A program made the translations under genes and the position numbers. A model generated the notes under the pieces. It saw only the letters and a list, made by a program, of their open reading frames with translations. It did no database searches and was not told where the DNA came from. A stretch of 64,000 nt of DNA, taken from Halioglobus sp. (GTDB taxonomy: Bacteria > Pseudomonadota > Gammaproteobacteria > Pseudomonadales > Halieaceae). The first letter of the stretch is position 1; each line of letters starts with the position of its first letter. This document shows, piece by piece, positions 4,960-33,679 of the stretch. The DNA lies in assembly GCA_039990395.1 (NCBI GenBank), contig JBDXFZ010000144.1, positions 37,469-101,468 of the forward strand. Reading direction: 5' to 3'.

Positions 4960-5288
4960 AACCACTACCTCATCATTGTGTGAATACAGCACCGCCGACA
5001 GGCGATATGTTACATATATTCACACAGTGGGTAACAATTGCAAGCAAGACATGTTTTTTGCAGCTGCTTAACTTACTGTTATTTATGGATTTAATTTCGA
5101 TCGCATCTTTCCCCTGCACCACTATGTTGCGATAAGTAACGTTAAAGGCGCGAGATTCACCAAAATGAAGCAGCCTATTGAAAAATCGCACCATCTAGAA
5201 CCGTGGACTGCACCAATTTATCCCCATAATTCGCGCCAGAGTTTGGTAATATTCGCGCAAATTAATTTCACAGCTCGAGTCTATTCCC

Positions 5289-6953: not shown

Positions 6954-6995
6954 CGCGATATAGTTACCCCAGACTGAGAGAGCACGAGTTTTACT

Positions 6996-7493: not shown

Positions 7494-8537
7494 CTATTGC
7501 AAAAAGAAGTAGGCTCCAGCAGCAACCGCCAGCCCTACTACAATCAATGCCACAATTTTTGCCCCTGATCCATTTGAGGCAGTGTTACCTGAATCTCCGC
7601 CAGCTGCCTCAACTGGAGCCGCACCTGCTGTTCCACCCAGCGCGGAATGAAAAACGACTGTTGCCATCCCCAGTGTTATCTCATCGCCATCGGCAAGATA
7701 CGCCGTCAAACGCTTCTCACCATTTACGAATATGCCATTGGCTGAAACAAGATTTACAAGGCGCCAACGGCCGCCTTGATGCACCAACTGAGCGTGACGA
7801 CCTGAAACACTCTCTTCTGTCAGCACAACTTCACATCGTTCCTCGCGGCCTATCTCCCATACATCAGACTCAGCAGTACCACCTGGCTGGAGTTCGAATA
7901 CGGCACCGGCACTCTCACCCTCACTCACAACAATCAGGTGAGGCAAATCAGACGCGCGCCCTACATCAGCAGCGCTAACACCTGGCGCGATATCATCTAA
8001 CGAAAGTACCCGTGTTTCTTCACCGGTACCCGTATCTACCCAACTTCCAGGCAGATCGAAGCTGCCCGATGCTACCGCGGCGGGTTCGCTTTTAGGCTCG
8101 GGCTCAGGGGGTTTTTCGTCTGCCTTTTCTGCCGCTGGCTCACTTGGTGGGGCGGTGGATGGTGCAGGCTCAGGCTCTGGAATATCTACAACCGTGGCGT
8201 CGTCCATTTCTACTACGGTGGCGTCAAGGTCTTCGTCTGAGCCCTGCGTTTCGAGTTTAAAGCTGTGTTTCTCAAAGCTGATCTCATCGCCACCATAGGC
8301 CTGCGTCGGCTTCTCTATACGCAATCCATTAACGCGAGTGCCATTGGAAGAACCCAGATCCTCGATCATTACTTTCTTGGCTTCTACCTTAATCACCGCA
8401 TGATTTCGGGAAACTTTGGCGTCGTCTATGGTAAGCCCGCAGTCAGCCGAACGGCCCACAATGGTCTCTCCCTCTAGCATTACCGCCTCACCTTCTGAAG
8501 GTACCAGCTTGGCAACAAATTCCTGATTTTCGAGCAT
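7494..8537 (-). CDS. dual FHA-domain protein, C-terminally membrane anchored
   Basis: FHA1 is GRSADCGLTIDDAKVSRNHAVI...SSNGTRVNG. FHA2 is GREERCEVVLTEESVSGRHAQL...SANGIFVNG. A Pro/Glu-rich linker joins them, and the C-terminal TM is IVALIVVGLAVAAGAYFFL. Start set at MLENQE (ATG 8535-8537); the track ORF's longer start would overlap the PP2C gene. Confidence 0.8.
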   Translation of the reverse strand: MLENQEFVAKLVPSEGEAVMLEGETIVGRSADCGLTIDDAKVSRNHAVIKVEAKKVMIEDLGSSNGTRVNGLRIEKPTQAYGGDEISFEKHSFKLETQGSDEDLDATVVEMDDATVVDIPEPEPAPSTAPPSEPAAEKADEKPPEPEPKSEPAAVASGSFDLPGSWVDTGTGEETRVLSLDDIAPGVSAADVGRASDLPHLIVVSEGESAGAVFELQPGGTAESDVWEIGREERCEVVLTEESVSGRHAQLVHQGGRWRLVNLVSANGIFVNGEKRLTAYLADGDEITLGMATVVFHSALGGTAGAAPVEAAGGDSGNTASNGSGAKIVALIVVGLAVAAGAYFFLQ

Positions 8538-8548
8538 ATCGATCTCTC

Positions 8549-9574
8549 TTACCGCCCTGTCACAATAAGCCACGCCAGGTAAGCAGCGGCTACTACCGTC
8601 ACCGTGGTCATTCCTATCCAAAATGTTCGTGAACGCGATTTGCGCTTTGCTTCCTTCACCGCGAGTTTGCGCATTGCTTCAACCTGCGCCACCGGTATCA
8701 TCTGCGTAGCGCCCGCACCCTTTGGTGCTACCCGTCGCACTCCCGCCGGTTGCGCTGGCGCACGGTCAAGCTCAGGTAGGCCACTATACTTGCCCGTAGA
8801 AGGATCAAAGCTCCATACCGGCTCCGGTCGCTGTTGCACTGATCCTCGCACGGACTCATCCGCCTCCACCAGAACTACCGTTACGTTGTCACGTCCCCCG
8901 GCATCCAGTGTCGACTGGATCAGGGCCTGGCAACGTTCCGTCAACGTTTCTCCGGAGCGAAGTATGTCGATAATCTGCTGATTTTCCAACACATCGTTAA
9001 GCCCATCGCTACACAGCAGAAGTATCTCACCTGCGTTGATACGACCGGCAATAGCGCCTATATCGAGGTTGTCCTCGCTTTGCAAACCAACAGCCTGAAC
9101 AATCACATTCTTGCGAGGATGGTTACGCGCTTCCTCGATCGTAATCCGACCCAGTTCCAACTGGGCAGCCACAAACGAGTGATCTCTAGTCAATAAATGA
9201 AGCGAACCATCCCACAGGTAGGCGCGGCTGTCGCCCACCCAGTCAATACGATATTCGGCGCCCTGCATACGCATAGCCACCACTGTAGACGCCATGCCGG
9301 GCTTGCCCTTGCCTGCTTCCAGAGCGGCCATCACGTCGTCATTGGCGTTGCGGATGGCCTCTTCCAAACCTAACCCGGCACCAAGATCTCTCTCGATGCT
9401 TTCGCAGGTGATGCCACTGGCAATCTCACCTGCGTGATGACCGCCCACACCATCTGCCACCAATAGCAAACCAATTGATTCATTAATCAGAAATGCATCT
9501 TCGTTATGCTTGCGCCGAGCGACATCGGTTTGTCCGGCACTGCTGATCCCCGGAGCAAGCTGCACAATACTCAT
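8549..9574 (-). CDS. PP2C-family (PPM) Ser/Thr protein phosphatase, C-terminal TM anchor
   Basis: 341 aa with RKHNEDAF, VADGVGGHHAGEIAS, LLCSDGL and GGRDNVTVV motifs. C-terminal TM is TTVTVVAAAYLAWLIV. ATGA overlap with the upstream cytochrome gene. Confidence 0.85.
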   Translation of the reverse strand: MSIVQLAPGISSAGQTDVARRKHNEDAFLINESIGLLLVADGVGGHHAGEIASGITCESIERDLGAGLGLEEAIRNANDDVMAALEAGKGKPGMASTVVAMRMQGAEYRIDWVGDSRAYLWDGSLHLLTRDHSFVAAQLELGRITIEEARNHPRKNVIVQAVGLQSEDNLDIGAIAGRINAGEILLLCSDGLNDVLENQQIIDILRSGETLTERCQALIQSTLDAGGRDNVTVVLVEADESVRGSVQQRPEPVWSFDPSTGKYSGLPELDRAPAQPAGVRRVAPKGAGATQMIPVAQVEAMRKLAVKEAKRKSRSRTFWIGMTTVTVVAAAYLAWLIVTGR

Positions 9575-10875
9575 AAGGAATCCCTAAGTTTTCGCGACAT
9601 CACTGCAAACTGTTTGGGAACAAAGACATTCTCGTCTGTGACAGTGGCAAACAGCTGGTCGAGTTGCTGTTCGTAGCTACCCTGATCATCCAGAGTGATT
9701 GTAATAGTTTCAATGGCCAGAAAAATTTGTTCCGCAGAGGTGAAATGCCTAAAGTCGCCTGCGCCTGCGCGCTCCGCCAGCTGCTGACGTAATAGTTTTA
9801 AATCAGCTGTTTGATACGACCGATTGCCCAACTGCTCAACCAGGGGTTCTAGCACAGCAACAAGAGTTTTAGACTCAGCCACCACTGCACTACGAGACTT
9901 GACTGACTGCACATGTAATGCCACTCGACCCTGTGCAACCTTAGTAGCTGCCGGCGATCCTAGGGCGTTTAACACAGCTTCCAATACCAAAAGAGTTCCG
10001 TCGTTTAACCGGACACTACCCGGCGGTAGCGCTCGACTTCCCCCCTCCGACTCCCAGCGCAGGTCATTCATAGGATGATGGCACGAGTGACATTGATAAA
10101 AGGACAGTTCCGGCATGAGCGTGTCGCCGCCAAACCAATCGGTCTGCAGGAGCTCCAACGACTGGATGCTGGTCAATACCAATCCAGAAAGCCACATGTT
10201 TACCGACGGCGTATATGGCTTACGCTGTGAGTAGTCGGTGTCCACCTCGTAGTGGGCGGGCTGATTAACGGTAAAGGTTTCCAGTTCGAAACTTAACCGG
10301 GGATGGCCTGCGCCCATGATTGCATGCGTTGCAAATTTGTTTCGCGTACCCAGATGACAAGACAAGCACAATCTTGCCCGCGCGGCTGGCTGCTCCGTTG
10401 GATACATGCCAGCCGCTACGTTGTCCGCATGCGACGTCCCCTGCTCGGCATGACTCTGCAACCACTGACCCGAACCACCATGGCAGGCTTCGCAACCCAC
10501 ACCATCAGAGATCTGGAAACGCCTACCTCTACTCTCCACTGCTACATTATCTGCATGGCAATCCAGGCAGATATCCGCCGCATGTGCACTCGGTAAACCC
10601 AGCTTTGCTGCCATGGCCTGCGATTGCTGTGTTTGCAGCGTGCGGTAAGCGCGCGAGTGGAAATCCTCGCGCAACCATATCCGGTATTCATTCAACCAGA
10701 CGGTAGACTCGGGATCAGGACTGACCTTACCGTGACAGACGCTGGTTGCGCACGTCGCAACGCCTTCGTGCACATTCTGCGCTGTTTCAGGCAACAGTTG
10801 GGCGTGCACCTGTACAGCGCAACACACTGCCCCTAGCCACGCTATAAGCGCTAAGGCTTGTTTTCGACAAACCAA
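9571..10875 (-). CDS. periplasmic pentaheme c-type cytochrome (c554/c3-like)
   Basis: Signal peptide present. Heme motifs CATSVCH (CX4CH, as in cytochrome c3), CLDCH, CEACH, CLSCH and CHSCH. TTG start overlaps the upstream gene by 25 nt. Confidence 0.75.
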   Translation of the reverse strand: MVCRKQALALIAWLGAVCCAVQVHAQLLPETAQNVHEGVATCATSVCHGKVSPDPESTVWLNEYRIWLREDFHSRAYRTLQTQQSQAMAAKLGLPSAHAADICLDCHADNVAVESRGRRFQISDGVGCEACHGGSGQWLQSHAEQGTSHADNVAAGMYPTEQPAARARLCLSCHLGTRNKFATHAIMGAGHPRLSFELETFTVNQPAHYEVDTDYSQRKPYTPSVNMWLSGLVLTSIQSLELLQTDWFGGDTLMPELSFYQCHSCHHPMNDLRWESEGGSRALPPGSVRLNDGTLLVLEAVLNALGSPAATKVAQGRVALHVQSVKSRSAVVAESKTLVAVLEPLVEQLGNRSYQTADLKLLRQQLAERAGAGDFRHFTSAEQIFLAIETITITLDDQGSYEQQLDQLFATVTDENVFVPKQFAVMSRKLRDSL

Positions 10876-13800
10876 GGCTTACCCTCCTCATCAAGGAACA
10901 TTTTGCGCATTTCATCCTGGTTCAACGGCCTGGAGCCAAGACGACCGAAGACCGCTATCTGCCCGCCCGTTTCGTCTACGCCGCGATCACGCTCTAGCGG
11001 CCGACTGATTGACAACGCCGGCGACTGCGTCGGATAAACTGCTATCAATTCCGGCTTGGGCGCCGGACTGAAACCGTAAAATTTCGGCTGGCTGTCGGGC
11101 GACGTGAGCTGCACAACCTTCAGGCCAGAGCCGCCATCTGCCACATAAGCAAACAAAGAGGCGTTGGTACTGGCAACAGTGACATCGTAGCTATCACTCA
11201 GTCCATCTTTAAAGCTTTCTACGAGCTTCATCGCTTCAGGATTTTTGATATCAACGATTGTCAGGCCATCCGCGCCGCTAGCGACATAGGCAAACGTACG
11301 TGCCAGATGCAGCCGGCGTGCTTGCCCGAGCGAAATTGTGTTGTCCGGTGTGACAATCGGCTTCGATGGGTCAGTAATATCAACTACTTTCAGACCATCC
11401 GCATCTGTCACAAACAGATACCTGAACTGCTGTGCTAGAGAATGACCGTTACTCAGAGGCAGAACGCTTTCGAGCTTGGGCTCCAAAGGTTTGTCGATAT
11501 TGACTGTAACCAGACCTGCATCAGCAATGATATAGGCGTACATTCCACCAAGAACCATGTGTCGCGCACCTTTAAGCACACCCTGATCATTCCAAGTGAC
11601 CGCACGCGTGAGCTTATTGTTGCGAGGCTCTCCGTCCATGAGAGTATCGATATCAACGAGAATCAGCCCTTCTTCGCTATCGAGAATGTAGGCATAGGTA
11701 TAGAGCGGATGAAACGGCTGCTCTTCGTTAATGTCACGCATCAACTCGCCTTGGTTGCGAGACGGCTGAATCGGCTGAGTAGTCGGCAGCACAACACAGG
11801 TCGCGTTCTTGCTATCGATATGCGTATCGTGGCCCAGCCTGCTGAAGGGGGCGGTGATTATGCGCTGTGATACACCTTTGTTCGCAATGCTGGCCACATC
11901 GTAGACTTGCGTACCTTTCTCACCTTCAGCCACGAACAAATATTCTCCCCGCAACTGCAGGCATTCCGAAACGCCACTGGTATGCGGGTAACCATGCTGT
12001 AGCACGCGATCATTAGTCTGATGCTCGGCAAAATAGTCCGGATACGCATACTTTTGAAGGTAGCTACCAATCACCGCCTGTGGCTCATCCCACTCTGTTA
12101 CTTGTACACCGGTAATATGCTGTTCACCACCTACATACGCTATGTGCCCGAGAAAATTCACGAAGCCCGTACCGTACATCAGAAGCTGCGCCATGATCGC
12201 ATTGTTATCGTTGTTCTTACTTAGGTGACAATCTTCACATTGCTTTGTCTCGGTCTTTCGCACTGTATGTGCAAAATGAGGATTGAATGCCTGAGAGCTA
12301 TAGCCACTTGCTGCGATTGGTGGCTGCTGGATGTAAATCTTCTCTCGATTGGAATTAGTAGAAGAAAGCACAAGAGCAGACGTAGATCGTACGGGTGCAA
12401 TCTTTCCGCCTTTGGCCGTTTCGCGCCGGCCCAGCAAAAACATCTGGTCGCGCGCTACTTGTGGGTTGTACGTAGCGTAGTTACGTGAACTCCCACCTTC
12501 ATAATGGTGTCGCTCTGTTTTTTCGTTCGCCTGAATCGGCAGGTGACAGCCGCCGCAACTCGTTGTCCAAGAGGTATGACAGGTATAGCACTCCATCTCT
12601 TCATCTGAGTGCGCGAGCTCATCCATGCTCACCTCTGCACCCCAAGCTTGTGATGCGGTATCAGTGCTCATGGTTTTTGCGCGCGCCGCTTCTGAGTTGT
12701 AGCCCGTGTGTTCTGGGTCAACGCTATCCTTCACGAGGCTGACCTCCCACTCCAGCTCAGGATCCAGCACCGATCGTTGAATCAGCTTTTCTCCTATCCA
12801 CTCAAAACGCCGACGTCCATCTGGATTTCTAATTGCCCCTAAATCTGTGCCGCCTTCCAATGCGGCCGGGCCTGAGGTAAAGAGGTTCGGGTAGGCAGAA
12901 ACAGAGCCATGGCAATCCTTGCAATCTATTTCTACAGCGGCGGCGACTTCGCCATAAATGTGTCCATTGCCATGATTGTCTTGTGAGTAGTGGCAATCGA
13001 CACAGTGCATGCCGGCATCAAGGTGAATTGAAGACATATGAACAGCCTTCTGAAATTTATCTGGATCTTCATCGCTCACCTGCGCACCTTCAGCATCCAA
13101 CAGGTTGCCATCACGATCGCGCTTGAACACCGCGCGGAAGTTCCAGCCGTGACCATGGTAATCGGCGAACTGGGTATCTTTTAGCTCTGGATTCATCTCA
13201 GACACCGCTTTGAGAAACTCTAGGTCCGCCCACTTTCCGCGCGGCGCAGCACCCTCAGGGTTTCTCTCTAACACCTTGCGGCGCTCTTCGTCTGTTGGGT
13301 ACACCTGTTTTTCTGGCCACATAGACGGCGCGTCAGACTCGTAGTCCCACATCGTGTAACCCAAGTAACTGTTCACGAACATATTGGGCTGGTGCATATG
13401 GCAAACCATACACTGGCTGGTTGGAATTGCCCGTGTGAACTTGTGTTGCAGCGGATGTCCCGGCTCCTCTTTGGGAATCATTGGATCTACCGACTGGCTT
13501 TCCCCAATATGGCCAAACTGCGCATAGGCACCTGAGTGGCGTGGATCACGATCGTTCGCATAAACGACATGGCAGGCAGCACATCCGGAGTTACGGTAGT
13601 CACCGGGCTGATCGTTAGTACCCATAAACCAGGTATGCGGGTCATTCAATCGAGTCTTGGTAATATTAATCAGCGGCACTGAAATGCGGGCTCCCGTTCC
13701 GGGGCCACGATTACTCTGACGAAAATCTGGTCTGCCGGGTTCTTCAAGACGTTGTAACTGTCCCAGCGCATTGGGCAATCCCGTTTCTGGAAACAGGTTA

Positions 13801-14603
13801 CTGATATTACGTCCACCACGCTCAAACACCCTGAAAATATCGCCGGGTTTCACCGTCTCCCACGCGGGCAAGGGATAGAGCTCTGGTAAAATTCCTGCCA
13901 GAGTCATTTCTTCGGTAGGTATTACTGGTCCCTTTACCGCCGCACCCACGCCTTCGCGCGTATAGGACTCGCCTAAAATATAGCGTTTGAAAGGTAGTAT
14001 TCCGTTGTTGTACGAGGCTCCTCCCCACAACATGGCTGAGGTCGCCATCAAACTGCGCTCGGCAGCTTCAATGATGGGCAGATGGCAGGCCCCGCAGGCT
14101 TCTCTGGCGATGCGATAGTCCGAGGGGTTAACAAACCGCACGAACTCAGGACTTTCCCTGTTGAGCAAAGTGTAGGTTTGTTCCGGATTGGCGCTTGATG
14201 GATAGTGCCAGTCATCAGGATAACTTGGGAGAACGTGCGCTGACTCCATCGCCGCCAGGTAAGCTGGATTCGACAAACCCTCGGTCACACCCTGAGGCGC
14301 TCGCACCGTGGCGTTACCCCCGTGGCAGTCGGTACAACCCAATTTAACTGCCGGATTCATGTGCATTGTTTTTTCATCAGTACTGGTGTGACAGGTTTCG
14401 CACCCTTCCGACTTAGCCGCCATCTGTTCCTGTGTCTGACTGACCGGCGCGTTCGGCGCAGTCACGTATTGCCTCGCTACCGCCTCGCCGCCCGAAGAGC
14501 CGAGAGTAACGCTCACAGGCAATGCGACGCCGACCAGCATCAGGCTCGCTAGCCAGATTTTCATCACCGCTGAAGTTGTTGGTTTTCCCTGTGCCAAGAT
14601 CAT
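10851..14603 (-). CDS. 1250-aa decaheme c-type cytochrome fused to a C-terminal LVIVD-repeat beta-propeller
   Basis: Signal peptide present. Ten CXXCH motifs: CETCH, CTDCH, CGACH, CAACH, CMVCH, CVDCH, CKDCH, CYTCH, CGGCH, CEDCH. The C-terminal third carries GLILVDID, GLVTVNID, GLKVVDIT, GLTIVDIK and GLKVVQLT repeats. Confidence 0.8.
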   Translation of the reverse strand: MILAQGKPTTSAVMKIWLASLMLVGVALPVSVTLGSSGGEAVARQYVTAPNAPVSQTQEQMAAKSEGCETCHTSTDEKTMHMNPAVKLGCTDCHGGNATVRAPQGVTEGLSNPAYLAAMESAHVLPSYPDDWHYPSSANPEQTYTLLNRESPEFVRFVNPSDYRIAREACGACHLPIIEAAERSLMATSAMLWGGASYNNGILPFKRYILGESYTREGVGAAVKGPVIPTEEMTLAGILPELYPLPAWETVKPGDIFRVFERGGRNISNLFPETGLPNALGQLQRLEEPGRPDFRQSNRGPGTGARISVPLINITKTRLNDPHTWFMGTNDQPGDYRNSGCAACHVVYANDRDPRHSGAYAQFGHIGESQSVDPMIPKEEPGHPLQHKFTRAIPTSQCMVCHMHQPNMFVNSYLGYTMWDYESDAPSMWPEKQVYPTDEERRKVLERNPEGAAPRGKWADLEFLKAVSEMNPELKDTQFADYHGHGWNFRAVFKRDRDGNLLDAEGAQVSDEDPDKFQKAVHMSSIHLDAGMHCVDCHYSQDNHGNGHIYGEVAAAVEIDCKDCHGSVSAYPNLFTSGPAALEGGTDLGAIRNPDGRRRFEWIGEKLIQRSVLDPELEWEVSLVKDSVDPEHTGYNSEAARAKTMSTDTASQAWGAEVSMDELAHSDEEMECYTCHTSWTTSCGGCHLPIQANEKTERHHYEGGSSRNYATYNPQVARDQMFLLGRRETAKGGKIAPVRSTSALVLSSTNSNREKIYIQQPPIAASGYSSQAFNPHFAHTVRKTETKQCEDCHLSKNNDNNAIMAQLLMYGTGFVNFLGHIAYVGGEQHITGVQVTEWDEPQAVIGSYLQKYAYPDYFAEHQTNDRVLQHGYPHTSGVSECLQLRGEYLFVAEGEKGTQVYDVASIANKGVSQRIITAPFSRLGHDTHIDSKNATCVVLPTTQPIQPSRNQGELMRDINEEQPFHPLYTYAYILDSEEGLILVDIDTLMDGEPRNNKLTRAVTWNDQGVLKGARHMVLGGMYAYIIADAGLVTVNIDKPLEPKLESVLPLSNGHSLAQQFRYLFVTDADGLKVVDITDPSKPIVTPDNTISLGQARRLHLARTFAYVASGADGLTIVDIKNPEAMKLVESFKDGLSDSYDVTVASTNASLFAYVADGGSGLKVVQLTSPDSQPKFYGFSPAPKPELIAVYPTQSPALSISRPLERDRGVDETGGQIAVFGRLGSRPLNQDEMRKMFLDEEGKPWFVENKP

Positions 14604-14612
14604 TGTCGCCCC

Positions 14613-16496
14613 TTAGAAAGTCAGGATTACATTAAAAAGAACAGAGTAAGGATCTTCATCGCCGTACAGATCCTTGAAACCATCACCACCCAACAGTTGA
14701 GCGTAGGACGCTCGCACCACCACATTCTGACTCATAAACGGCCGCCAAATGACTGCTGCAGACAAATCCATGCCGATCTCTTCATCAACATTGCTTTGCG
14801 CCCGCGCTACCTCAAGTACTTCAGTCTCGGCAAACGCCAGGTAGTTGGCGTTAAATGACAAGCGCAGTTCGGGCAAAATATCCATATCAACACCACCACC
14901 AAGCAGCAAGATACCGGGATTGGTGAAGTTTGATTGCCCGTGCTCTTTGGAGGACCTAAGCGAGTTGAGGATTCCGTTGCGCTGTGACAACGCTACGCGT
15001 CCACCACCGATCAATGGCACGCCCTGCCGTATCCAATAGCTGGTATCGGCACCTGCAAACTGGGGGTTTTCGAAGATGGCATCGAAACCCTCACTCTTGC
15101 CGTCAAACGGATCATCATCGCCAGAACCATAAAGGAACGACAGGCGCGCCCGCATCCAGTCAAAGTCCATCGAAGGTTCAACCGCAAAGAAATACGCCTG
15201 AATATCTGAGTCCTCCGATCCGAAGACTGAGTCTTTCTCTTCACCTAGTGCCAAATAAGCCGAGGTTGTTAAATTGAGACGGCCAAAATGGCCGTCGCCA
15301 CTGTAGCCCAGGTAATACACGTCGTACTCTCGCAGGCGCTCCTCACCTATCGACGCAGGCCTTGCGATAAAGTCGTTGGTGTCATAAAAAATTTCGTCCT
15401 CACGATTTCGATTGTAGATGGCCGAAAATTGCGAGAAAAAACCTAGTGTAGGCTCATCCTGAAAATAGAGGTTCGCAACGTAAACATCGTCGTCGCGCAG
15501 AGACTCGGTAACATCGTTCAAACCGGAATTAGTATCTTTCTCCATCCGCCGGAACCAGGCAAGATTATACTGATAGCGGTTGTTGTCGCGCGTACCGAAG
15601 AGGCGAACGCCAAACGGAGAGTCCTGAAAAAGAAAGCCCCTGAAGTCACTAGAGAATGGCTGAATACCCACACGCACACTATCGAAATCGTAGCGCTCAG
15701 AGACATCTCTTAAGTGTTTATCTACAAACGCTGCTTGAATACCAATGTGATTGTCTTCTCGGGTTCGACCAATCGCCGGATCAGCATTCGTGCCTAGTGT
15801 TTCATCCAACTTCGTATAGTTGTAGTTGAATACAGGCGTGAACCTAAACTCCCAATCCGGGGGTCTGAACACAGTATCGCCCTGATAGTACACAAGCTCT
15901 ACTGCCAGATTCTGATTAATCAGCGTTTGGTCGAGGCCACCCAGTACATCTAGCGAGCCTGGGCTGTTTGTCGTTTGTACTCCAACAGGCGTTGGCACTT
16001 CACGAACTTCGACAACCGTGTCGGAGATGACCGCCACATTGAAGAACCAGTCATCGTGGATCGGTTTGTCGCCCTTAATCGTATTTTGATCATAGGGATT
16101 AAACCAGTTGTCTTCATAACCCAGGCTGTCGACTATGCGCCAGCGATCGGGAATCGGCACGGCCTCAACATACTGCTCGGCCGTAGGACGGGGAATCGGT
16201 GAATAGCGACGTGGTAAAACAGTTCGTTCACGCGCTACGGGTGTTTCGCGTAATACTTCACCTGTCTCTTCATTAACCACCGTTTCCCGATACTCGCAAT
16301 CCCGGTTGGAGCCACCCGCCCTGCGACGTCCGCTACGCGCACGGTCTCGCACATCTTTATCATCACAGGCAGGCAAAGCGGTGTCAGCCGTTTCTGATTG
16401 TGCCGACGCATTTATGGGTGCTGCCAATATCATTAGCGCAAATGCAAAAGCTATGGAAGTTGTGAGAACAGGCCGTAACGAGGTTGTAGTAGTCAT
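14613..16496 (-). CDS. large outer-membrane beta-barrel protein (porin-like candidate)
   Basis: 627 aa. Signal peptide ...APINASA-QSE. Alternating amphipathic Tyr/Gly/Asp-rich segments and a C-terminal ...FNVILTF with terminal Phe. No family recognised. Confidence 0.6.
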   Translation of the reverse strand: MTTTTSLRPVLTTSIAFAFALMILAAPINASAQSETADTALPACDDKDVRDRARSGRRRAGGSNRDCEYRETVVNEETGEVLRETPVARERTVLPRRYSPIPRPTAEQYVEAVPIPDRWRIVDSLGYEDNWFNPYDQNTIKGDKPIHDDWFFNVAVISDTVVEVREVPTPVGVQTTNSPGSLDVLGGLDQTLINQNLAVELVYYQGDTVFRPPDWEFRFTPVFNYNYTKLDETLGTNADPAIGRTREDNHIGIQAAFVDKHLRDVSERYDFDSVRVGIQPFSSDFRGFLFQDSPFGVRLFGTRDNNRYQYNLAWFRRMEKDTNSGLNDVTESLRDDDVYVANLYFQDEPTLGFFSQFSAIYNRNREDEIFYDTNDFIARPASIGEERLREYDVYYLGYSGDGHFGRLNLTTSAYLALGEEKDSVFGSEDSDIQAYFFAVEPSMDFDWMRARLSFLYGSGDDDPFDGKSEGFDAIFENPQFAGADTSYWIRQGVPLIGGGRVALSQRNGILNSLRSSKEHGQSNFTNPGILLLGGGVDMDILPELRLSFNANYLAFAETEVLEVARAQSNVDEEIGMDLSAAVIWRPFMSQNVVVRASYAQLLGGDGFKDLYGDEDPYSVLFNVILTF

Positions 16497-16498
16497 CG

Positions 16499-18472
16499 CT
16501 ATTTACCTCCACACACGTTCTGCTGATCACTATCGATATAGGGCGTCTGCGGACACTGAATATATCTCAGTCTTTCTCCCATGGGCGCTAGCCTATCGGC
16601 ACGTATTTCGGGAGGTGCGTTATTAATGCTGTTTCCGAGCTGCTGGCCGGCCTCATCCAGTCCCAGGAAAGCAATCATGTCATCCTGATCGATACCATCG
16701 CCAGAAACACCGATGCCGCCCACCAACTGATTACCTCGGTAGATAGGCACACTACCTGGAAAAATCTGAATACCATTTGCGATTCTGGGCGCTGCGGCAT
16801 CGGGACAATTTGACTGGACGTCCTGATCAGTTGCACCTGCAGCAAACAACACGTGGGTAAAGATGCTGTTAATCGTCAGATCAAGCTGTAACCCGGTCGA
16901 AAAAACACTCCATTCATCGTTTGCGAAGGGCTTACTGAACGGACCACTGGGATTCCCCCTAATGCCATCGGGGTAGAATGGCCGCGACAGATTGCCACCC
17001 GCTCTGTCAGAAAAAGCCGTACCGTCTGTCAGTGCATTCGGGCCCACAAATGCCTGCACTTGATCAACATAGGTGGGAATAAACACTTCGGCTTTGGGAG
17101 ACAGATCTGGATTTAAGTAAACCGCGGGGGTTGTGATTGCCCGCAAGAACGCGGCCGCGTCGCGTGAGGAAAAAAGCGCAGCTGTACGCGCTTTCTGCAG
17201 CGAAACATCGGCACCAAAAACCGGGGCATCAGCCGAACGGACAACTCCCAAAATTACACCCTGACTATCAACTACGGAGATAGTCACTCTGGCGGGCGTA
17301 CCAATCGGTCGGCGTATTTGCGCCCGGCTGCGGGCCGCGACTACCAGCGCGCTTTCAAGCAGCGTGGCTACCTCGCTGGCCGACAACGGAGCCACGGGAA
17401 GCGTGCCGCCATCGGAGCCGCCTCTGGGCGGGAAGCGATTGTTGTTGTCTTCGTCTACGAATACGAACGATTCTATACTTGCCAATGCACCTGCCCTGAT
17501 ACCGGATGCCGGTGTGCCAAATGCGGTGCCTGCAATAATGCGTCCGCCACCATAACCTTGAACATCAACAAGATTGCCACGGTCTACCAACGAATCGTAA
17601 GCAGGTGCTTGCTCCGGAGACACTGGCAAATTGCCAAACTCAACATCCGTAAAGCGAAGAGTTTTTCCCTCAACGGTAATTCGGTCGGCACGCCTGTCAC
17701 GAGGCGCTGCAAAATCGTAGGTCGCAGCCAAGGCTATTTGCTCATCTATATCACGATCGTCATTGAGAATATTCTTATCGATTGTGTAGCGACCATCGGC
17801 AATGACGCCTACACCACCGACCGGTGTGCCAGATTTATAAAGCGGAAAACCACCTGGATCTGCTGACAAACCCAGCGGGGAACGCTGAGGTCCTACGTTA
17901 CTGCCCGCCGAAGCGCCGGACAGCACAAAATCAGAGCACGCGAGCTGACTAAACTGCACCCCAAACAACGGGCCGGCAGGTTGGTTCTCTTCGCCTGGGT
18001 TGAAGTGCTCCTGAACAATTTGATTAGCGGTACGGCTGGAGAACGCATTGCCTTCGCTAGATAAGTAGGCGCCGGTTACCGCCTTGGTGATTGCAGCAAG
18101 CGCTCCCGCATTGGTGCCGGCTGGTAGCACAACTCCTTCAAGACCGGTGCTGATCGTAGTGGGAAAAGTCGTGCCTATCTCAACTGCGGCTCCTTGGACA
18201 GCCATCCTGTGAATAGCCAATACGTTGCCTACGCGATCTACCACGGCGATCGTCGCCTCAACACCCAACGCCTCTGCTTGGGCTATTCCCTGCGCCAGAA
18301 CCTGCTTTACATCAGCTATCGTAAGCGATGTTGATTGCGTAGCACACTGACCCACACACGGTGTCGAACTATCATCTGTCGCGGGTGACGCCCCTGCGCT
18401 ACTGCCACCGCTGCCACCCCCCCCACACGCGGTGAGTAACAACAAGCCGGCCGCACATCCAAGTAACCTCAT
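16499..18472 (-). CDS. lipoprotein with two GlcG/HbpS-like (DUF336) heme-binding-type domains
   Basis: Lipobox LLLTAC followed by a Gly/Ser linker. Domain 1 is LTIADVKQVLAQGIAQAEALGVEATIAVVDRVGNVLA...GGVGVIADG. Domain 2 is VTISVVDSQGVILGVV...GGIGVSGDGIDQDDMIA. Confidence 0.65.
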   Translation of the reverse strand: MRLLGCAAGLLLLTACGGGGSGGSSAGASPATDDSSTPCVGQCATQSTSLTIADVKQVLAQGIAQAEALGVEATIAVVDRVGNVLAIHRMAVQGAAVEIGTTFPTTISTGLEGVVLPAGTNAGALAAITKAVTGAYLSSEGNAFSSRTANQIVQEHFNPGEENQPAGPLFGVQFSQLACSDFVLSGASAGSNVGPQRSPLGLSADPGGFPLYKSGTPVGGVGVIADGRYTIDKNILNDDRDIDEQIALAATYDFAAPRDRRADRITVEGKTLRFTDVEFGNLPVSPEQAPAYDSLVDRGNLVDVQGYGGGRIIAGTAFGTPASGIRAGALASIESFVFVDEDNNNRFPPRGGSDGGTLPVAPLSASEVATLLESALVVAARSRAQIRRPIGTPARVTISVVDSQGVILGVVRSADAPVFGADVSLQKARTAALFSSRDAAAFLRAITTPAVYLNPDLSPKAEVFIPTYVDQVQAFVGPNALTDGTAFSDRAGGNLSRPFYPDGIRGNPSGPFSKPFANDEWSVFSTGLQLDLTINSIFTHVLFAAGATDQDVQSNCPDAAAPRIANGIQIFPGSVPIYRGNQLVGGIGVSGDGIDQDDMIAFLGLDEAGQQLGNSINNAPPEIRADRLAPMGERLRYIQCPQTPYIDSDQQNVCGGK

Positions 18473-20166
18473 TGTTCGAGTTCCCCCCTCGCTAATATTG
18501 AGCGAGTTCCATCAGATTGATGAAACGCATGGCAGCCCACGCAGTCCACTGCACTGAATCCCTTATCCTGAGAATGGCAGGTAAGACAGTTGTCCTGTCC
18601 GGGGATGAGAACATCACTAGCCTTCTCCGAAACGGAGGCCTCGTGGCAGGTTTCGCAGACCTCGTCTTCGTCTCCGGCAAGACTCAAATGACTCACGTGA
18701 TCAAAGCGGCTCTTGGGATACCAGTCGTCTATAATTTTTACTGGCTGAACGAACCAGCGATCACTTATGTCGGCAAGCCCCGTATCCATCACTTCATGAC
18801 AGGTGATACATCCTGTCTCTGCAAACTGATACTCAGCTTCTTTAAGTGCTTCGGCGCGACCACAGTCCAGCCCCGAACCCTGACATTCAGCCAGCCCTTC
18901 ACGTTTCCCTGGAACTCGCCTTGGCTTGGTTGCTGCACGCTGCTGCCTTAACACCGGATCGGTAAACTCTCTAATAAAATGCGCTTCCATCGCGACAATC
19001 GCTTCACGCAAGTTACCGTGTGGCAGCTCAATGTCTGGCTCAAAAACATCAAAATTGAGCGTGTGGCATGAACGGCAGTGCTGATCCATAGTAATCGGTT
19101 CAAAGTGTTCGCCATCGTCTTTCAGGGTATGGCAAGAGTCGCACTGAAGTGCATCCCCACTCTGTGCATCCTGTACCTTGTCGATATCCAGATGCACTGT
19201 GTGCGTGAACTTCAAATTTGATGCTTCTGCAATTTCACCTTCGCCCCGCCTTACGCGTTCAGTTGCCCAACCATGCGCTCCGCCGGGCCCCTGCGCAGTA
19301 AGCAACGACACGCGAAACTCCGGATGCGCAGCCTGCGTAAACGCTGAAACGCTGCCTGGTAGTGCAGCCATAGAAGTAACCCAAGTATCAGGGTCGGCGT
19401 GGCAATCTACGCACAAGCCATTATCCCGATTCACTATCTGAGGTGGCTCGTTGTGTTCGCGGTGACAACTACCACACCTTGCTTCCGCGAACACCTCAGT
19501 CTCGTGTAGCGAAACATCAACATGTTCACGCAGGTTTCGGTGACAATCCAGACACGTATCATCTTTTACCATTTTGAAAGGCTCAACGTGACACGCCTGA
19601 CAATCTTCGCTGATACCGGCGGTCTGATGCGCAGCTGCCAGCGGGCCTGAAGACCAGACTCCATCGTCAGGAAGGGGCGTCTGACGCAGCATAGAGGCAA
19701 GCTGGGGTGACAGCATGCCTCCAAGCGGTATCAGCAAAAACAGAGCCATCACGACCAGCAGTAGAATCCAGCTCAGGCGCCGAACGTTCCATATTCTGCT
19801 CTGCAACTCCATCCCATCAAGGAGAAAGGACGCTGGGGAGCTTGAGAGCGGCGTCTGCTCCAGCGCAAAATCAAATCCAACGGGGGCCGCCACCACCTCG
19901 AATCGAAAACCGCCAAATTCAAAATTGTCGCCTGCGGCAAGAGCTGCCTTGCTCGTTAATTTCTGATTGACGGTGAGCTGCGCTCGCTTTGACGTTATCT
20001 GCCAGTTATCGCCAGACGATCGCCAAATCTGAACACTACCCTTAGCGCCAACAATTTGAACCAGCGCGTTCTCGTCTCCGCCAAGAGTAAGGCTGTCTGC
20101 CTGAAACTCTGTTTCGGCAGCCTCGGCACTTTCACGACCCGTCTTCTTTCTGATAAGAAAATACAT
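18469..20166 (-). CDS. inner-membrane-anchored decaheme cytochrome c3-family protein with a ~120-aa cytoplasmic N-terminal domain
   Basis: One TM (LSWILLLVVMALFLLIPLGGML), then ten CXXCH motifs: CQACH, CLDCH, CGSCH, CVDCH, CDSCH, CRSCH, CITCH, CETCH, CLTCH, CVGCH. ATGA overlap with the next gene. Confidence 0.8.
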   Translation of the reverse strand: MYFLIRKKTGRESAEAAETEFQADSLTLGGDENALVQIVGAKGSVQIWRSSGDNWQITSKRAQLTVNQKLTSKAALAAGDNFEFGGFRFEVVAAPVGFDFALEQTPLSSSPASFLLDGMELQSRIWNVRRLSWILLLVVMALFLLIPLGGMLSPQLASMLRQTPLPDDGVWSSGPLAAAHQTAGISEDCQACHVEPFKMVKDDTCLDCHRNLREHVDVSLHETEVFAEARCGSCHREHNEPPQIVNRDNGLCVDCHADPDTWVTSMAALPGSVSAFTQAAHPEFRVSLLTAQGPGGAHGWATERVRRGEGEIAEASNLKFTHTVHLDIDKVQDAQSGDALQCDSCHTLKDDGEHFEPITMDQHCRSCHTLNFDVFEPDIELPHGNLREAIVAMEAHFIREFTDPVLRQQRAATKPRRVPGKREGLAECQGSGLDCGRAEALKEAEYQFAETGCITCHEVMDTGLADISDRWFVQPVKIIDDWYPKSRFDHVSHLSLAGDEDEVCETCHEASVSEKASDVLIPGQDNCLTCHSQDKGFSAVDCVGCHAFHQSDGTRSILARGELEQ

Positions 20167-20170
20167 AGCG

Positions 20171-21049
20171 CTACCAGTAGAGGAAAACGGAGATGATGTG
20201 AACCGTTAAAGCACCCAGCAGCGCTACGGTTAACGGAATATGTAACGCCAGCCATACTTTGACCAATCCACGAAGACGCGTGTCTCGCCTAAGTAGGTGG
20301 AGTACAAACTGTCGTCGGCCAAACAGGGCAAGAAGTTCATTCAGAACTTCGGCATCGGCCGCCTTTCTGGCGTCAGGGATACGCTTGGTCAGAACATCGA
20401 TAACAGCCGACTGCTCCGTGTTGGCGATCGGGCGACCCCCATCTGTTATCTGTACCATCGATTTATCGGTTGCGCGTAGCTGCTGCCATACGCCGCCACC
20501 CAGGCGCGTTAGCTCCAGCGCACTCACAACCATCAACTGTATGTCTGCATCCGTCCGGCGCACAACTTTACGGATTTCTTCATCCAGGTCTACAAGCTCT
20601 GCCAGCCACTGCTCGTTGTTTCTACCGGAACTGTTTTCGGCGATTCGCGTCGGCAAATGCATATACACATAGAGTCCGTAGACGCCAGATGCAATCACCA
20701 AACACATGAGCACGTAGGCTAATGTATGCACATTCCAGCCAAACTGAGCGGCGCAGTGCAGTGTCGCAATGATCAATAAGGCGATACCCAAATAGACGTG
20801 CGCCGACGTCCAACCCTGCACGGTGCCTATTGCGGAGCGGTACTTCCGTTTTCGAATACCTAGCAGGCTCAACCAGATAATCAGGCCAGCACCAACGGTT
20901 CCCAGCACATAGCCCTGCCAGGTACCTCCATTCGGTGGCTGACCTGGCTGAAAGGACTGAGAGACGTAGAGTGCTATACACACAACTGCAGCGAAGATTG
21001 ACCACTTCAAGTAACGTTGCTTTTGCCAACCTAAAAGGCTCTCTCGCAT
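20171..21049 (-). CDS. polytopic inner-membrane protein with conserved-looking intramembrane His (b-type heme candidate)
   Basis: 292 aa, about five TM helices. His residues lie in TM3 (SAHVYLG..TLHC), TM4 (NVHT) and TM5 (ALHIPL..TVHII). Only 2 nt separate it from the FAD/FeS protein gene and 4 nt from the decaheme gene. Confidence 0.6.
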   Translation of the reverse strand: MRESLLGWQKQRYLKWSIFAAVVCIALYVSQSFQPGQPPNGGTWQGYVLGTVGAGLIIWLSLLGIRKRKYRSAIGTVQGWTSAHVYLGIALLIIATLHCAAQFGWNVHTLAYVLMCLVIASGVYGLYVYMHLPTRIAENSSGRNNEQWLAELVDLDEEIRKVVRRTDADIQLMVVSALELTRLGGGVWQQLRATDKSMVQITDGGRPIANTEQSAVIDVLTKRIPDARKAADAEVLNELLALFGRRQFVLHLLRRDTRLRGLVKVWLALHIPLTVALLGALTVHIISVFLYW

Positions 21050-21051
21050 AG

Positions 21052-23532
21052 CTAGCGTGCCTCTACAAGTTCTACAAACTGCTCAGGCCCTACTCTAGTG
21101 GCAGCACCAGTAGGACAGGCGCGCACACAAGCGGGGCCACCCGCCTGCCCCATGCAGGCATCGCACTTAACGGCCTTTTTGACAGCATCGGCATCAGCTG
21201 GCTTCATGTTATCTGGCTCTCCAGGGCCAGAGCCTGCACCAAACATTAGCCACGATAGCAAGCCAGGTTTTGGTGGCGCCGGGTAACTAAGTTTAATTGC
21301 ATCATAGGGACAATTCGTCTCGCAGTTACCACAGCCTATACAGGTATCAGCAATGAATACCTGACCATCTGCTGCTCGGCGAATGGCGTCTGGCGGACAG
21401 TCTTTCATGCAATGCGGTAACTCGCAGTGCCTGCATGAAACCGGCACATGAAGATTGGCCATCGACGCTCCAGACTTTCTGTCTAGCCGTGATATGCCAC
21501 CATGAGTTTCCGCGCAGGCTTTTTCACAATTATCGCAACCTACACAAAGCGTTTCGTCGATAACCAAAGCATTAGTGGCCTCGCCCAACCCTTCTGCCAC
21601 GAGAAAGCCAACTGCCTTGGCCGACTCTGGCTGCGAGGCCATCACGTTGGATTTCTGAAGCAGCGTGCTCAATCTATCTTGAAGCACTTCTACGTAATCG
21701 GGCTGGCTGTTTACCAGCGCAAGAAACTCTGCCTTATGAATTTCCAAGGTCTCGGTACGTACTGCCGCAGTGGCCGTATCGCGACGCATCGGTGCGCCCA
21801 TTAGCGCCATTTGCCCTGCAAGCTCACCCGAATGCAGTTGAGCCAGCACCAGGTCTGCGCTACCTCGCGACAATACGATTGTGCCGCTGCGAATCAATTG
21901 CAGCGAATCGCCCTCTTCGCCCTCGCGAAAAACCGTTTCGCCAGCATTGTATTGACGGGCATCCGCCTTATCGGCAATCTCACCCAGCGCATCAATACTG
22001 AGGTTTGGCCTGAACGCCGACTGCAGCGCACGAATCTTGAATATGCGGTCAATTCCGGATCTGACGTCCTCATTAGAGTTCATCAGCTTAACCATAATCC
22101 GGCGAGGCGTTTCTATTAGGATTGCGTCTTCACTCACTACTGCATCCCCCTGTCTGGGGCGACCCGAGATCAAGCTCATCTCTCCAAAAAACTGCCCAGG
22201 CACGATGGTATGCCAGGGACCGTCTTTTTCGAGCTGCAGTTTCACTTCTCCTTCTACCAGCGTAAAGAAGCCGGTAGAAAACTCCCCGTGGCGATAAAGC
22301 GGTTCGCCAGCGGGTACAAATGCAGTGGAGCGCTCAGTAGGCGCAGGCATGCTGGCCAGTTGCTCCTTTGGCACACTTACCATAATCCGGCTCTCAATAA
22401 TCAACTCCCTGAAAGCCAGTGGATTCATGCGCCTGAACATCGGCACACGCTGCTGATATAGCGCGAGAACCTCTTCAGCGTCCATCACATAAGGCAGGCC
22501 CGAGAACTGATCCTGAAGCAATGGGTAGTCGGCAGGCTTGGTGTCCTTGCCGTGGATAAACTCCACTACGTCGTAGCCCTGATTCATCGCTTGCTTTATC
22601 AGCGGGTAACCACCGAGAGCGCCAATGATATACAAACCCGATACATTACTCTGATAGTGCCGATCTACATCCGGGGTTGCATCTGGGTTCTTACTGGTGA
22701 TTTCAATACCACAGGATTCCACGAACCGACGCGGTGGAACGGTCCCTAAGCGCGCGATAATTCTGTTGCATTCAATGCGTTCTTCACCAGAAGCGGTATT
22801 AAGTACGATCGCTCCCTTGCCATCGGTTTCAGCAGGTAGCTCGAGCGAGGAAACCGAGCTTTCATAGCGACAACTAAACGGATTGGATTTATCGTTGATA
22901 GCTGCCAACACATTATTCAGATTGCCGTCTTTCGCCCTGCTGAATTCGTTGCGCCGGTTGACAATGACGACCTTGTTTTGCTCCGAAAGCGCAATTGCGT
23001 TTTCAATCGCTGCATCACCCGCACCGATAACTACGATGGTTTCGTCTGTATAGTCTGCTGGATCATCGAGCGTATAAAGTACGAAGTCAGACTCACCATC
23101 TCCTGGCACACCAAGCGTTCTTGGGTTGCCTTGCGTTCCAATAGACAGAACAACGTGCTCGGCACGAATACTCTCGCCTGTTTGCAAAGCAAGTTCAAAG
23201 CTACCGCGCTCGCCCTGGATGGACACCACCTCGCTGTTATAGCGAATATTGATTCCACCCTCGATGCTATCAGACCACTTGCCCAGTATTTCTTCGCGCT
23301 TGCCCGCGTCAAAGGGAACCGGTGAGCGCAGCGCAAGAAAGCCAGGCTCATCCATTACATGCTTGCCTTTCTGGTATTTCTGAATGGTTTTAGCAAAAAC
23401 AGAAAAACCTTCTAGAAGCACATAAGAAGGAGTTTCCCTACCCTCTTCCCGGTCATACTCTGCAGCACGACCGGCGGCACTCAAGCCTGCAGGGCCCGCC
23501 CCTATAATTACAATGTGGTAATTGTCTGCCAA
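21052..23532 (-). CDS. fusion protein: FAD/NAD(P)H pyridine-nucleotide-disulfide-type oxidoreductase + 2 cyclic-nucleotide-binding domains + 4x[4Fe-4S] ferredoxin domain
   Basis: 826 aa. Rossmann motifs IVIIGAGPAGLSAA and VVIGAGDAAIENA. cNMP-like segments FFGEMSLISGRPRQGDAV and LAGQMALMGAPMRRDTATA. Cys clusters CVGCDNCEKAC, CRHCELPHCMKDCP, CIGCGNCETNCP, CDAC...CVRACP. Apparent TTG start preceded by AGGGG. Confidence 0.8.
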   Translation of the reverse strand: MADNYHIVIIGAGPAGLSAAGRAAEYDREEGRETPSYVLLEGFSVFAKTIQKYQKGKHVMDEPGFLALRSPVPFDAGKREEILGKWSDSIEGGINIRYNSEVVSIQGERGSFELALQTGESIRAEHVVLSIGTQGNPRTLGVPGDGESDFVLYTLDDPADYTDETIVVIGAGDAAIENAIALSEQNKVVIVNRRNEFSRAKDGNLNNVLAAINDKSNPFSCRYESSVSSLELPAETDGKGAIVLNTASGEERIECNRIIARLGTVPPRRFVESCGIEITSKNPDATPDVDRHYQSNVSGLYIIGALGGYPLIKQAMNQGYDVVEFIHGKDTKPADYPLLQDQFSGLPYVMDAEEVLALYQQRVPMFRRMNPLAFRELIIESRIMVSVPKEQLASMPAPTERSTAFVPAGEPLYRHGEFSTGFFTLVEGEVKLQLEKDGPWHTIVPGQFFGEMSLISGRPRQGDAVVSEDAILIETPRRIMVKLMNSNEDVRSGIDRIFKIRALQSAFRPNLSIDALGEIADKADARQYNAGETVFREGEEGDSLQLIRSGTIVLSRGSADLVLAQLHSGELAGQMALMGAPMRRDTATAAVRTETLEIHKAEFLALVNSQPDYVEVLQDRLSTLLQKSNVMASQPESAKAVGFLVAEGLGEATNALVIDETLCVGCDNCEKACAETHGGISRLDRKSGASMANLHVPVSCRHCELPHCMKDCPPDAIRRAADGQVFIADTCIGCGNCETNCPYDAIKLSYPAPPKPGLLSWLMFGAGSGPGEPDNMKPADADAVKKAVKCDACMGQAGGPACVRACPTGAATRVGPEQFVELVEAR

Positions 23533-23547
23533 CGTCGAAACCCCTAG

Positions 23548-28138
<4,591 letters not shown>

Positions 28139-28201
28139 ATTCCTCTACACACAAATAAGCAACGCAGTAACTGTAAAACCAAAGAATGCATAGACGGCGC
28201 C

Positions 28202-29752: not shown

Positions 29753-29796
29753 TTTTCCCCCAACTTAGCTGACCCACCCGCTATACTTCGGCTAAA

Positions 29797-30654: not shown

Positions 30655-30693
30655 GTGTTTCACACTGACCTAGCCGATAATATCTGAATGCAA

Positions 30694-33576: not shown

Positions 33577-33679
33577 TCCAATCCCTGATGAATTTTTCTT
33601 TAACTGCTGTTCGTCCCGCGGCAAGCTGGGTATCCTAGCAGACTTCGTTGTGTACTCGTTGCACCTTTACGGTCATATC

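Follow-up and report, generated by a model that had tools for sequence, protein, structure and literature searches.

Gene E, on the minus strand at positions 21052 to 23532 of a 64,000-nucleotide stretch of a Halioglobus sp. genome (hereafter "the window," meaning the whole stretch that was analyzed), encodes an 826-amino-acid protein that joins a FAD/NAD(P)H module, two cyclic-nucleotide-binding (CNB) domains, and an iron-sulfur (Fe-S) tail of the 4×[4Fe-4S] type. We propose that E is probably the cytoplasmic electron-input subunit of an inner-membrane export module, E-F-G, which feeds an envelope-spanning multihaem system. The family is already known, having been noted as the Fe-S gene of PCC4 clusters and as PtdE. 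What is new, judging from the sequence comparisons, is a derived clade with degenerate CNB sites, to which the E of the window belongs, as opposed to a canonical clade that is linked to cyclases and phosphodiesterases (PDEs).

Domain architecture of E

An initial annotation, made from the sequence alone, had described E as a fusion of flavin, double CNB, and Fe-S parts, and Pfam, alignment, and AlphaFold2 all bear this out. The Pfam scores are far beyond chance, and the AlphaFold2 model, built on 64 homologues, has an overall pLDDT of 83 and a pTM of 0.74. The motifs that had been quoted fall at residues 9 (IIGAGPAG), 168 (VIGAGDAA), 457 (GRPRQGDAV), and 580 (APMRRDTATA), and the four Cys groups fall at residues 663 (CX2CX2CX3C), 700 (CX2CX4CX3C), 731 (CX2CX2CX3C), and 790 (CX2CX8CX3C). 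The proposed TTG start also holds. No other ATG, GTG, or TTG codon lies between the first Rossmann strand and the in-frame stop codon (23550-23548) that ends the upstream gdh gene, an AGGGG lies 8 nucleotides (nt) 5' of the TTG, and orthologues share the same start position with ATG, GTG, or TTG as the codon; thus, the TTG start is credible. No output domain (DNA-binding, kinase, or cyclase) was recognizable in E by Pfam or NCBIfam.

Residues 1 to 345 (22498..23532, minus strand) form a two-dinucleotide-fold flavoprotein module like that of YpdA and thioredoxin reductase (TrxR), as identified by Pfam, NCBIfam, and Foldseek. Pyr_redox_2 matched residues 5 to 319 (E = 4e-26; 92 bits against a gathering cutoff of 26 bits), with the GxGxxG motif at residues 11 to 16 and the second Rossmann motif, GAGDAA, at residues 170 to 175. 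When the AlphaFold2 model of this region was compared to known structures with Foldseek, the best matches were the Bdr/YpdA structures 7a76, 7apr, and 7a7b (E = 4e-22; TM-scores of 0.80 to 0.83 per target), followed by TrxR-type ferredoxin-NADP+ reductases and TrxRs. The module thus shares its two-Rossmann FAD/NADPH fold with Bdr/YpdA and the TrxR-type ferredoxin-NADP+ reductases (7a76, 7apr, 3lzw, and 3ab1), which are its best matches by structure and by hidden Markov model (HMM), but it differs from Bdr and TrxR in its fusion to CNB and Fe-S domains, in scores that lie far below cutoff, and in the loss of the active-site Cys or CxxC. Specifically, it scored 87.4 bits for YpdA/Bdr (TIGR04018; NCBIfam cutoff, 339.9 bits) and 56.7 bits for thioredoxin-disulfide reductase (TIGR01292; cutoff, 343 bits). 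Residues 1 to 345 contain no CxxC and only the cysteines C221, C255, and C274; the position of the Bdr active-site Cys (GxGPCG) is Ala15 in E, and 77 of the 78 aligned homologues have Ala or Gly there. The sub-cutoff scores and the missing catalytic Cys rule out E as a thioredoxin reductase or bacillithiol-disulfide reductase and, because the flavin module has no redox-active thiol, a role as a disulfide reductase is impossible. The module instead looks like a plain NAD(P)H-to-flavin dehydrogenase. Conservation in E was scored in two alignments, one of 64 rows and one of 78 homologues. Residues N192-R193-R194…R199, of which R193 and R199 are invariant in both alignments, resemble what we take to be the HRRxxxR motif for the NADPH 2'-phosphate in TrxR, and this likeness suggests NADPH as the likely substrate of E.

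We also observed a motif in the FAD domain, T-I-Q-x-Y-Q-K-G-K-x-V-M (residues 49 to 59; window 23356-23388, minus strand), that is nearly invariant among the 64 homologues: T49, Y53, Q54, K55, K57, V59, and M60 are invariant, and I50 and G56 are conserved at ≥90%. We did not recognize this motif from TrxR or Bdr, and it could mark an interface between the flavin and Fe-S parts.

The C-terminal tail (residues 655 to 826; 21055..21570, minus strand) is a four-cluster polyferredoxin of the HycB/HydN/DmsB type. Fer4_11 (PF13247) matched it above cutoff (33.4 bits against 26.2 bits), other Fer4 models matched across residues 657 to 810, and HycB (7z0s_B) aligned with residues 656 to 812 (E = 4e-18); the DmsB, HydN, NrfC, and FdnH models aligned as well. 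The tail shares the four Cys groups of HycB, HydN, FdnH, and DmsB, and all 16 of its Cys are invariant in both alignments. Four [4Fe-4S] clusters are therefore expected, against the two stated for PtdE in a preprint discussed below.

The middle of E holds CNB domain A (residues ~382 to 500; 22033..22389, minus strand) and CNB domain B (residues ~510 to 632; 21637..22005, minus strand). The cNMP_binding family (PF00027) matched two stretches (E = 1e-31; 108.9 bits against a cutoff of 27.5 bits), and AlphaFold2 placed two β-barrel-plus-helix units here with a pLDDT of about 85 to 92. The initial annotation had named alignment to known cyclic AMP (cAMP) sites as a check, and the region passed it, aligning contiguously with both cAMP domains of the yeast protein kinase A regulatory subunit (PKA-R) Bcy1 (3OF1; E = 2e-17). 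By this alignment, the middle region is a PKA-R-like CNB-A/CNB-B tandem. It shares with Bcy1 the Gly and Arg of both phosphate-binding cassettes and the Glu of site A, but it differs in that the residues after the cassette Arg are noncanonical and in that the effector is a redox module and not a kinase.

The E-F-G module and a predicted route for electrons

E heads a tightly packed operon on the minus strand. Gene F (20171..21049) starts 2 nt after the E stop and encodes a 292-amino-acid protein with five transmembrane (TM) helices, presumed to be a dihaem-b partner of E. It carries two WX3HX13H motifs (W80/H84/H98 and W266/H270/H284) and an SGxxG motif (SGVYG), all of which are invariant in 37 orthologues; the HX13H pairs lie on TM3 and TM5. 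Its AlphaFold2 model (pLDDT of 90) shows the five helices and a helical cytoplasmic insert of ~120 amino acids. Gene G (18469..20166), after a 4-nt junction, encodes a 565-amino-acid decahaem protein (10 CxxCH) with an FHA-like cytoplasmic N terminus and a single TM anchor; weak FHA and Yop-YscD_cpl matches recur among its orthologues. The rest of the operon (7494..18472) encodes an HbpS-like lipoprotein (16499-18472), a 627-amino-acid outer-membrane barrel (14613-16496), a 1,250-amino-acid decahaem-LVIVD propeller protein (10851-14603), a c554-like 4(+1)-haem cytochrome (9571-10875), a PP2C phosphatase (8549-9574), and, at the operon end, a dual-FHA protein (7494-8621).

To survey the family, one genome per GTDB species was scanned, and relatives of E were found in at least 589 species. 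We fetched 80 loci from Gamma- and Alphaproteobacteria and judged gene order wherever the contig was long enough; in essentially all of these, the order E-F-G, HbpS-like protein, outer-membrane protein, decahaem is kept. Carriers include Halieaceae, Woeseiaceae, Steroidobacteraceae, Lysobacterales, Alcanivoracaceae, and Alphaproteobacteria. The locus closest to the window is from a Halioglobus metagenome-assembled genome (MAG) (98% identity). Oceanicoccus sagamiensis and an alphaproteobacterial MAG share this gene order. On pMSHV, a conjugative 959-kb megaplasmid of Sphingobium herbicidovorans, the same genes form two convergent groups.

A natural fusion joins E to F. In locus L084 (8001-11333; GCA_039908105.1), a single open reading frame (ORF) of 1,110 amino acids encodes FAD-CNB-CNB-FeS followed by F, and an FHA-cytochrome G comes next. 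No outer-membrane genes lie near this fusion in L084, so the E-F-G core can stand alone. Together, synteny and this fusion rule out coincidence as the reason for the adjacency of E and F. Short 2×CNB-4×FeS proteins that lack the flavin module also exist: in L082, a short form is followed by a fusion of an inner-membrane protein (IMP) with a multihaem protein; in L086, it lies beside a small ferredoxin and a flavoprotein of the NAD(P)H-ferredoxin-reductase type; and in L089, it sits between an IMP-like gene and an FHA-cytochrome. Two planctomycetotal proteins (P0333 and P0360) have NuoG-like 2Fe-2S/4Fe-4S N-terminal modules (PF13510, PF22117, and PF10588) in place of the flavin domain. Thus, the input module is exchangeable, while the CNB tandem, Fe-S wire, membrane protein, and multihaem cytochrome are constant, a pattern in keeping with a flavin domain that acts on the input side and with electrons that flow outward. 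The suggestion in the initial annotation that E is the cytoplasmic entry point of a cytochrome operon therefore gains support from the 80-locus synteny, the E-F fusion, and the FAD-less forms beside ferredoxin and reductase genes.

Parts of this system have been described before. He et al. 2017 (PMC5566968), in their passages on PCC4, report in subgroup II an Fe-S gene (pfam13247) directly upstream of a 5-TM IMP that carries SGXXG and two WX3HX13H motifs, the latter being the dihaem motif described for PCC3 and PCC4 IMPs; the pair adjoins 4-, 5-, and 10-haem cytochromes and a porin and is annotated as a single gene in one genome. The F of the window carries exactly these IMP motifs, and PF13247 matches E above cutoff. 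The window differs in its haem set (10 + 10 + 4-5) and its β-propeller fusion, and those passages on PCC4 model flow inward to quinone and make no mention of FAD or cyclic nucleotide domains. Elbon et al. (bioRxiv 10.1101/2023.11.21.568154) named a cluster, ptdABCDEFG, whose function they call completely unknown, from marine Alpha- and Gammaproteobacteria and other phyla; PtdE is given as a cNMP-binding 4Fe-4S protein, PtdF as a ferric-reductase-like transmembrane protein, and PtdG as a periplasmic decahaem. Compared by this published description, the E-F-G triad and its gene order are the same in the window as in Ptd. No match named from the organisms of the published PtdE accessions came up. 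The pentahaem PtdA, porin PtdB, separate FAD/NAD(P) oxidoreductase PtdC, and tetrahaem PtdD belong to Ptd, whereas the window has the HbpS-like lipoprotein, the 627-amino-acid barrel, the decahaem-LVIVD protein, the c554-like cytochrome, and the FHA/PP2C genes. Its flavin module is fused to E, and the operon contains no separate PtdC-like gene, so the full Ptd cluster is not present. The cluster counts differ as well, with two in the preprint and four supported by the E of the window. By its junctions, the W80 and W266 motifs, SGVYG, the 10 CxxCH, and the 80-locus synteny, the window does carry the E-F-G module of PCC4 and Ptd.

In NADPH oxidases and ferric reductases, an NAD(P)H-reduced flavin feeds two stacked b haems, and in the FdnH-FdnI pair an Fe-S wire feeds a dihaem-b membrane protein. 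The proposed E-F pair would share the logic of the second and be a functional analogue of the first. Cofactor content, docking of E onto F, and the direction of flow are predicted here from domain content, conservation, synteny, and fusions. NAD(P)H, probably NADPH, would reduce the FAD of the YpdA/TrxR-like module, and electrons would then run along the four [4Fe-4S] clusters of the HycB/DmsB-like C-terminal domain to the cytoplasmic-side haem b of F (His84/His270). From there, they would move through the membrane to the outer haem b of F (His98/His284), enter the anchored decahaem G, and pass on to the periplasmic and outer-membrane haem proteins. In this scheme, the pair would resemble a split, FeS-extended NADPH oxidase or ferric reductase, or an FdnH-FdnI pair that faces the cytoplasm; it differs from FdnH-FdnI in that the Fe-S domain of E is cytoplasmic and fused to its own flavin donor. 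The route would not use quinone. Electrons would depart from the negative side, so the membrane potential would aid their flow and energy would not be conserved.

Several points weigh against this proposal. Haem b binding by F is presumed solely from the invariant His pattern. F has no PF01794 (FRD) match and only a weak, sub-cutoff match to Ni_hydr_CYTB (E = 5e-4). A Foldseek search of the PDB at E ≤ 0.001 gave no match to NADPH oxidase/ferric reductase (NOX/FRD), cytochrome b561, or FdnI structures. Neither by HMM nor by fold is F recognizably a member of these groups; its model is confident, yet it has zero PDB matches at this threshold. F may instead represent a new haem-b membrane fold. 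The PCC4 Fe-S/IMP pair and PtdE-F-G are both predictions from genomes only; the literature searched held no biochemical or genetic data on any family member, and later literature held no functional study of Ptd, PCC4, LVIVD cytochromes, or cNMP-FeS flavoproteins. He et al. (PMC5566968), where they model PCC4, proposed the opposite flow, from an extracellular donor inward to quinone. Lastly, no reads matched 18400-25000 in three RNA-seq runs that carry the same species label; only DNA contigs matched, so these runs are uninformative.

Cyclic-nucleotide sites and their divergence

The initial annotation had noted that both phosphate-binding cassettes of E deviate from the canonical form, and the 3OF1 alignment and the family comparison agree. 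The site A cassette, FFGEMSLISGRPRQGDAV, spans residues 448 to 465 (window 22138-22191, minus strand), and the site B cassette, LAGQMALMGAPMRRDTATA, spans residues 571 to 589 (window 21766-21822, minus strand). The family consensus is FGEMSLISGRRRSATV, also given as FFGEMSLISGRRRSATV, for site A and VGEMALMG..RRSATV for site B, and the short forms of E are canonical too. Classical cassettes conserve an Ala at position +2 after the Arg. Site A of E reads G450-E451…R460-Q-G-D, so that Q-G-D occupies +1 to +3, where the family consensus has S-A-T. In site B (G573-Q574…R583-R-D-T), Gln574 replaces the Glu and Asp585 replaces the +2 Ala. Neither site conforms to the functional-site pattern G-E-x(n)-R-[STAQ]-A-[TS], which is present in the sister clade.

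In a tree of E computed without the cassette columns, all sequences with noncanonical cassettes form one clade, sister to the canonical clade. This derived clade comprises the E of the window, other Halieaceae, Wenzhouxiangella, and MAGs from some Steroidobacteraceae and Woeseiaceae. The canonical FGE…R[ST]A[TS] sites are ancestral for the family and the cassettes of the window are derived. Within the derived clade, positions +1 to +3 of site A have an entropy of 2.3 to 3.5 bits and are essentially unconstrained, while site B retains a semiconserved R-[ED]-[TS].

The two clades were also compared for neighboring genes of cyclic nucleotide metabolism. A GAF-GAF-PAS class III adenylate/guanylate cyclase gene lies 5' of E in nine loci, all of the canonical clade (L033 [4770-7061], L038, L039, L040, L043, L051, L054, L074, and L079). 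On plasmid pMSHV of S. herbicidovorans MH, a gene for a putative CpdA/SpdA-like metallophosphoesterase PDE directly follows G (L087, 19245-20093). In L086 (2571-3332), a gene of the metallo-β-lactamase (MBL) fold that resembles "cyclic nucleotide-degrading phosphodiesterase" (NF041851; E = 7.5e-46, below cutoff) lies beside the short-form E. Because canonical cassettes and adjoining cyclase or PDE genes recur, a cyclic-nucleotide link is likely at the family level, and cyclic-nucleotide gating at that level is plausible. Neither the 64-kb window nor any derived-clade locus contained a cyclase or PDE gene.

A possible account of E itself is that its CNB domains bind a nucleotide second messenger, whether cAMP, cyclic GMP (cGMP), or a nonclassical one, and that binding opens or closes flow from flavin to Fe-S; any ligand is predicted from the sites, the clade structure, and the neighboring cyclase and PDE genes. 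We regard this as unlikely for the protein of the window. Both CNB domains are intact in fold, G450, E451, and R460 of site A and G573 and R583 of site B are invariant in the 64-row alignment, and Gln also follows the Arg in a genuine cAMP site, that of Bcy1 domain B in the 3OF1 alignment. In addition, the semiconserved R-[ED]-[TS] of site B suggests selection for some function, and relatives of E are linked to cyclases and PDEs. Against this, site A has Gly and site B has Asp where the whole canonical sister clade keeps the +2 Ala, site A has Asp in place of the +3 Thr/Ser, site B has Gln in place of the ribose-binding Glu, positions +1 to +3 of site A are unconstrained in the derived clade, and the cyclase and PDE genes are missing from the window and from the loci of its clade. 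Classical cAMP/cGMP gating is therefore doubtful for this E, as the degenerate sites suggest, and the caution in the initial annotation that the ligand may be neither cAMP nor cGMP was apt. Two observations temper this view of the derived clade. The Gly, Glu, and Arg of site A and the Gly and Arg of site B are still conserved there, so some ligand binding is possible. Furthermore, cyclase adjacency, counted in loci with at least 5 kb upstream, was 0/18 for derived and 7/35 for canonical loci, a difference that is not significant (Fisher P = 0.08) and that comes from nonindependent lineages.

In the wider family, the CNB domains most likely bind a cyclic nucleotide and control how the electron-input module is positioned relative to the Fe-S wire. 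The tandem is inherited from the 2×CNB-4×FeS core that also exists without a flavin domain. In the clade of the window, E probably no longer answers cAMP or cGMP in the classical manner; it may be ligand independent, tuned to another ligand, or under FHA/PP2C phospho-signaling. Protein P0148 (1,134 amino acids) is a fusion that begins with two FHA domains and continues as a full-length E, and by this architecture it ties E directly to phospho-Thr signaling. Together with the FHA and PP2C genes of the operon and the FHA-like head of G, it points to phospho-signaling as an added or replacement control.

A bolder version of the exporter proposal, which we hold only tentatively and think unlikely in full, is that E-F-G represents a previously uncharacterized class of quinone-independent inner-membrane exporter, a "split NADPH oxidase" whose Fe-S wire is switched by the CNB tandem, operated by cyclic nucleotides in most lineages and rewired in the Halieaceae-type clade. 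Under such rewiring, site A would have decayed while site B gained a conserved R-R-[DE]-T, and the valve would answer another small ligand or phosphorylation through FHA/PP2C. If so, the clade would be a natural case of regulatory rewiring of one redox machine, and it could give abundant aerobic marine bacteria regulated extracellular reducing power (Fe(III)/Mn(IV) reduction, superoxide). The family is also a rare case in which a redox enzyme carries its own second-messenger sensor domains, and the split between canonical and derived clades offers a ready comparison for whether CNB domains gate electron flow. The question is directly testable in cultured carriers, which include Oceanicoccus sagamiensis, Sphingobium herbicidovorans MH, Parahaliea, and Cognaticolwellia sediminilitoris.

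Direction of flow and genomic surroundings

Electrons could in principle run the other way, supplied from outside the cell (by Fe(II), Mn(II), or a cathode, for example) and ending at E, which would be a cytoplasmic sink that reduces NAD(P)+ or another acceptor. Haem and Fe-S wires are reversible in principle, and PCC4, as its description goes (PMC5566968), was first found in Fe(II) oxidizers and modeled as an uptake route to the quinone pool. Such flow would run against an inside-negative membrane and uphill from c haems to NAD(P)+ (about −320 mV), which on bioenergetic grounds would need energy, and no coupling device is visible in E, F, or G. Moreover, the FAD module resembles NADPH-oxidizing Bdr and ferredoxin-NADP reductases, and most of the carriers live as aerobic heterotrophs (Halieaceae, Woeseiaceae, Lysobacterales, and Sphingobium). 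We consider inward flow improbable. Slimmer still is the chance that the haem chain reports periplasmic or extracellular redox state to E, with flavin, Fe-S, CNB, and FHA/PP2C parts making a cytoplasmic signal: the operon does contain dual-FHA and PP2C genes with a Ser/Thr kinase gene nearby, G has an FHA-like domain, FHA-E fusions exist, and HbpS-like proteins are annotated at the family level as haem-dependent sensor accessories, but a set of ~25 c haems, an outer-membrane barrel, and a four-cluster wire is a great deal of machinery for a sensor, no output domain is recognizable in E, and the NAD(P)H/FAD module points to catalytic turnover.

If outward flow through E-F-G is correct, electrons can go directly from NAD(P)H to periplasmic haem, bypassing the quinone pool, in hundreds of marine and soil bacteria, most of them aerobic. 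This would bear on how iron and manganese are reduced outside the cell in oxic and suboxic waters, on bacterial extracellular superoxide production, and on the dumping of excess reducing power.

The genes upstream of E are lineage specific. Among the clustered upstream ORFs of the 80 loci, there was no universal partner of E; the neighbors include gdh, cyclase, FecR-like, TPR, and Ser/Thr kinase genes. In the window, the neighbor is a GdhA-like gene of the Glu/Leu/Phe/Val-dehydrogenase family (23548-24891, minus strand), which ends 15 nt 5' of E in the same frame. A gdh homologue also adjoins E in L001, L003, L042, and L043 and lies beside it in divergent orientation in Oceanicoccus (L081). 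This adjacency may reflect an NADPH/2-oxoglutarate link or merely inherited synteny.

Further 5' of gdh (window 24911-32148, minus strand), we observed genes for an autotransporter with thrombospondin type 3 repeats (24911-28138), a Sel1-repeat caspase-domain protein (28202-29752), and a Ser/Thr protein kinase (30694-32148) that could partner the FHA and PP2C proteins of the operon. On the plus strand, an ORF of 420 amino acids (33545-34807) has three matches to the DnaT DNA-binding domain (E = 3e-70), and such a repeat of this domain is unusual. There is an overlap between this ORF and the end of the neighboring RadA/Sms-like gene, and a DnaB helicase gene lies nearby.

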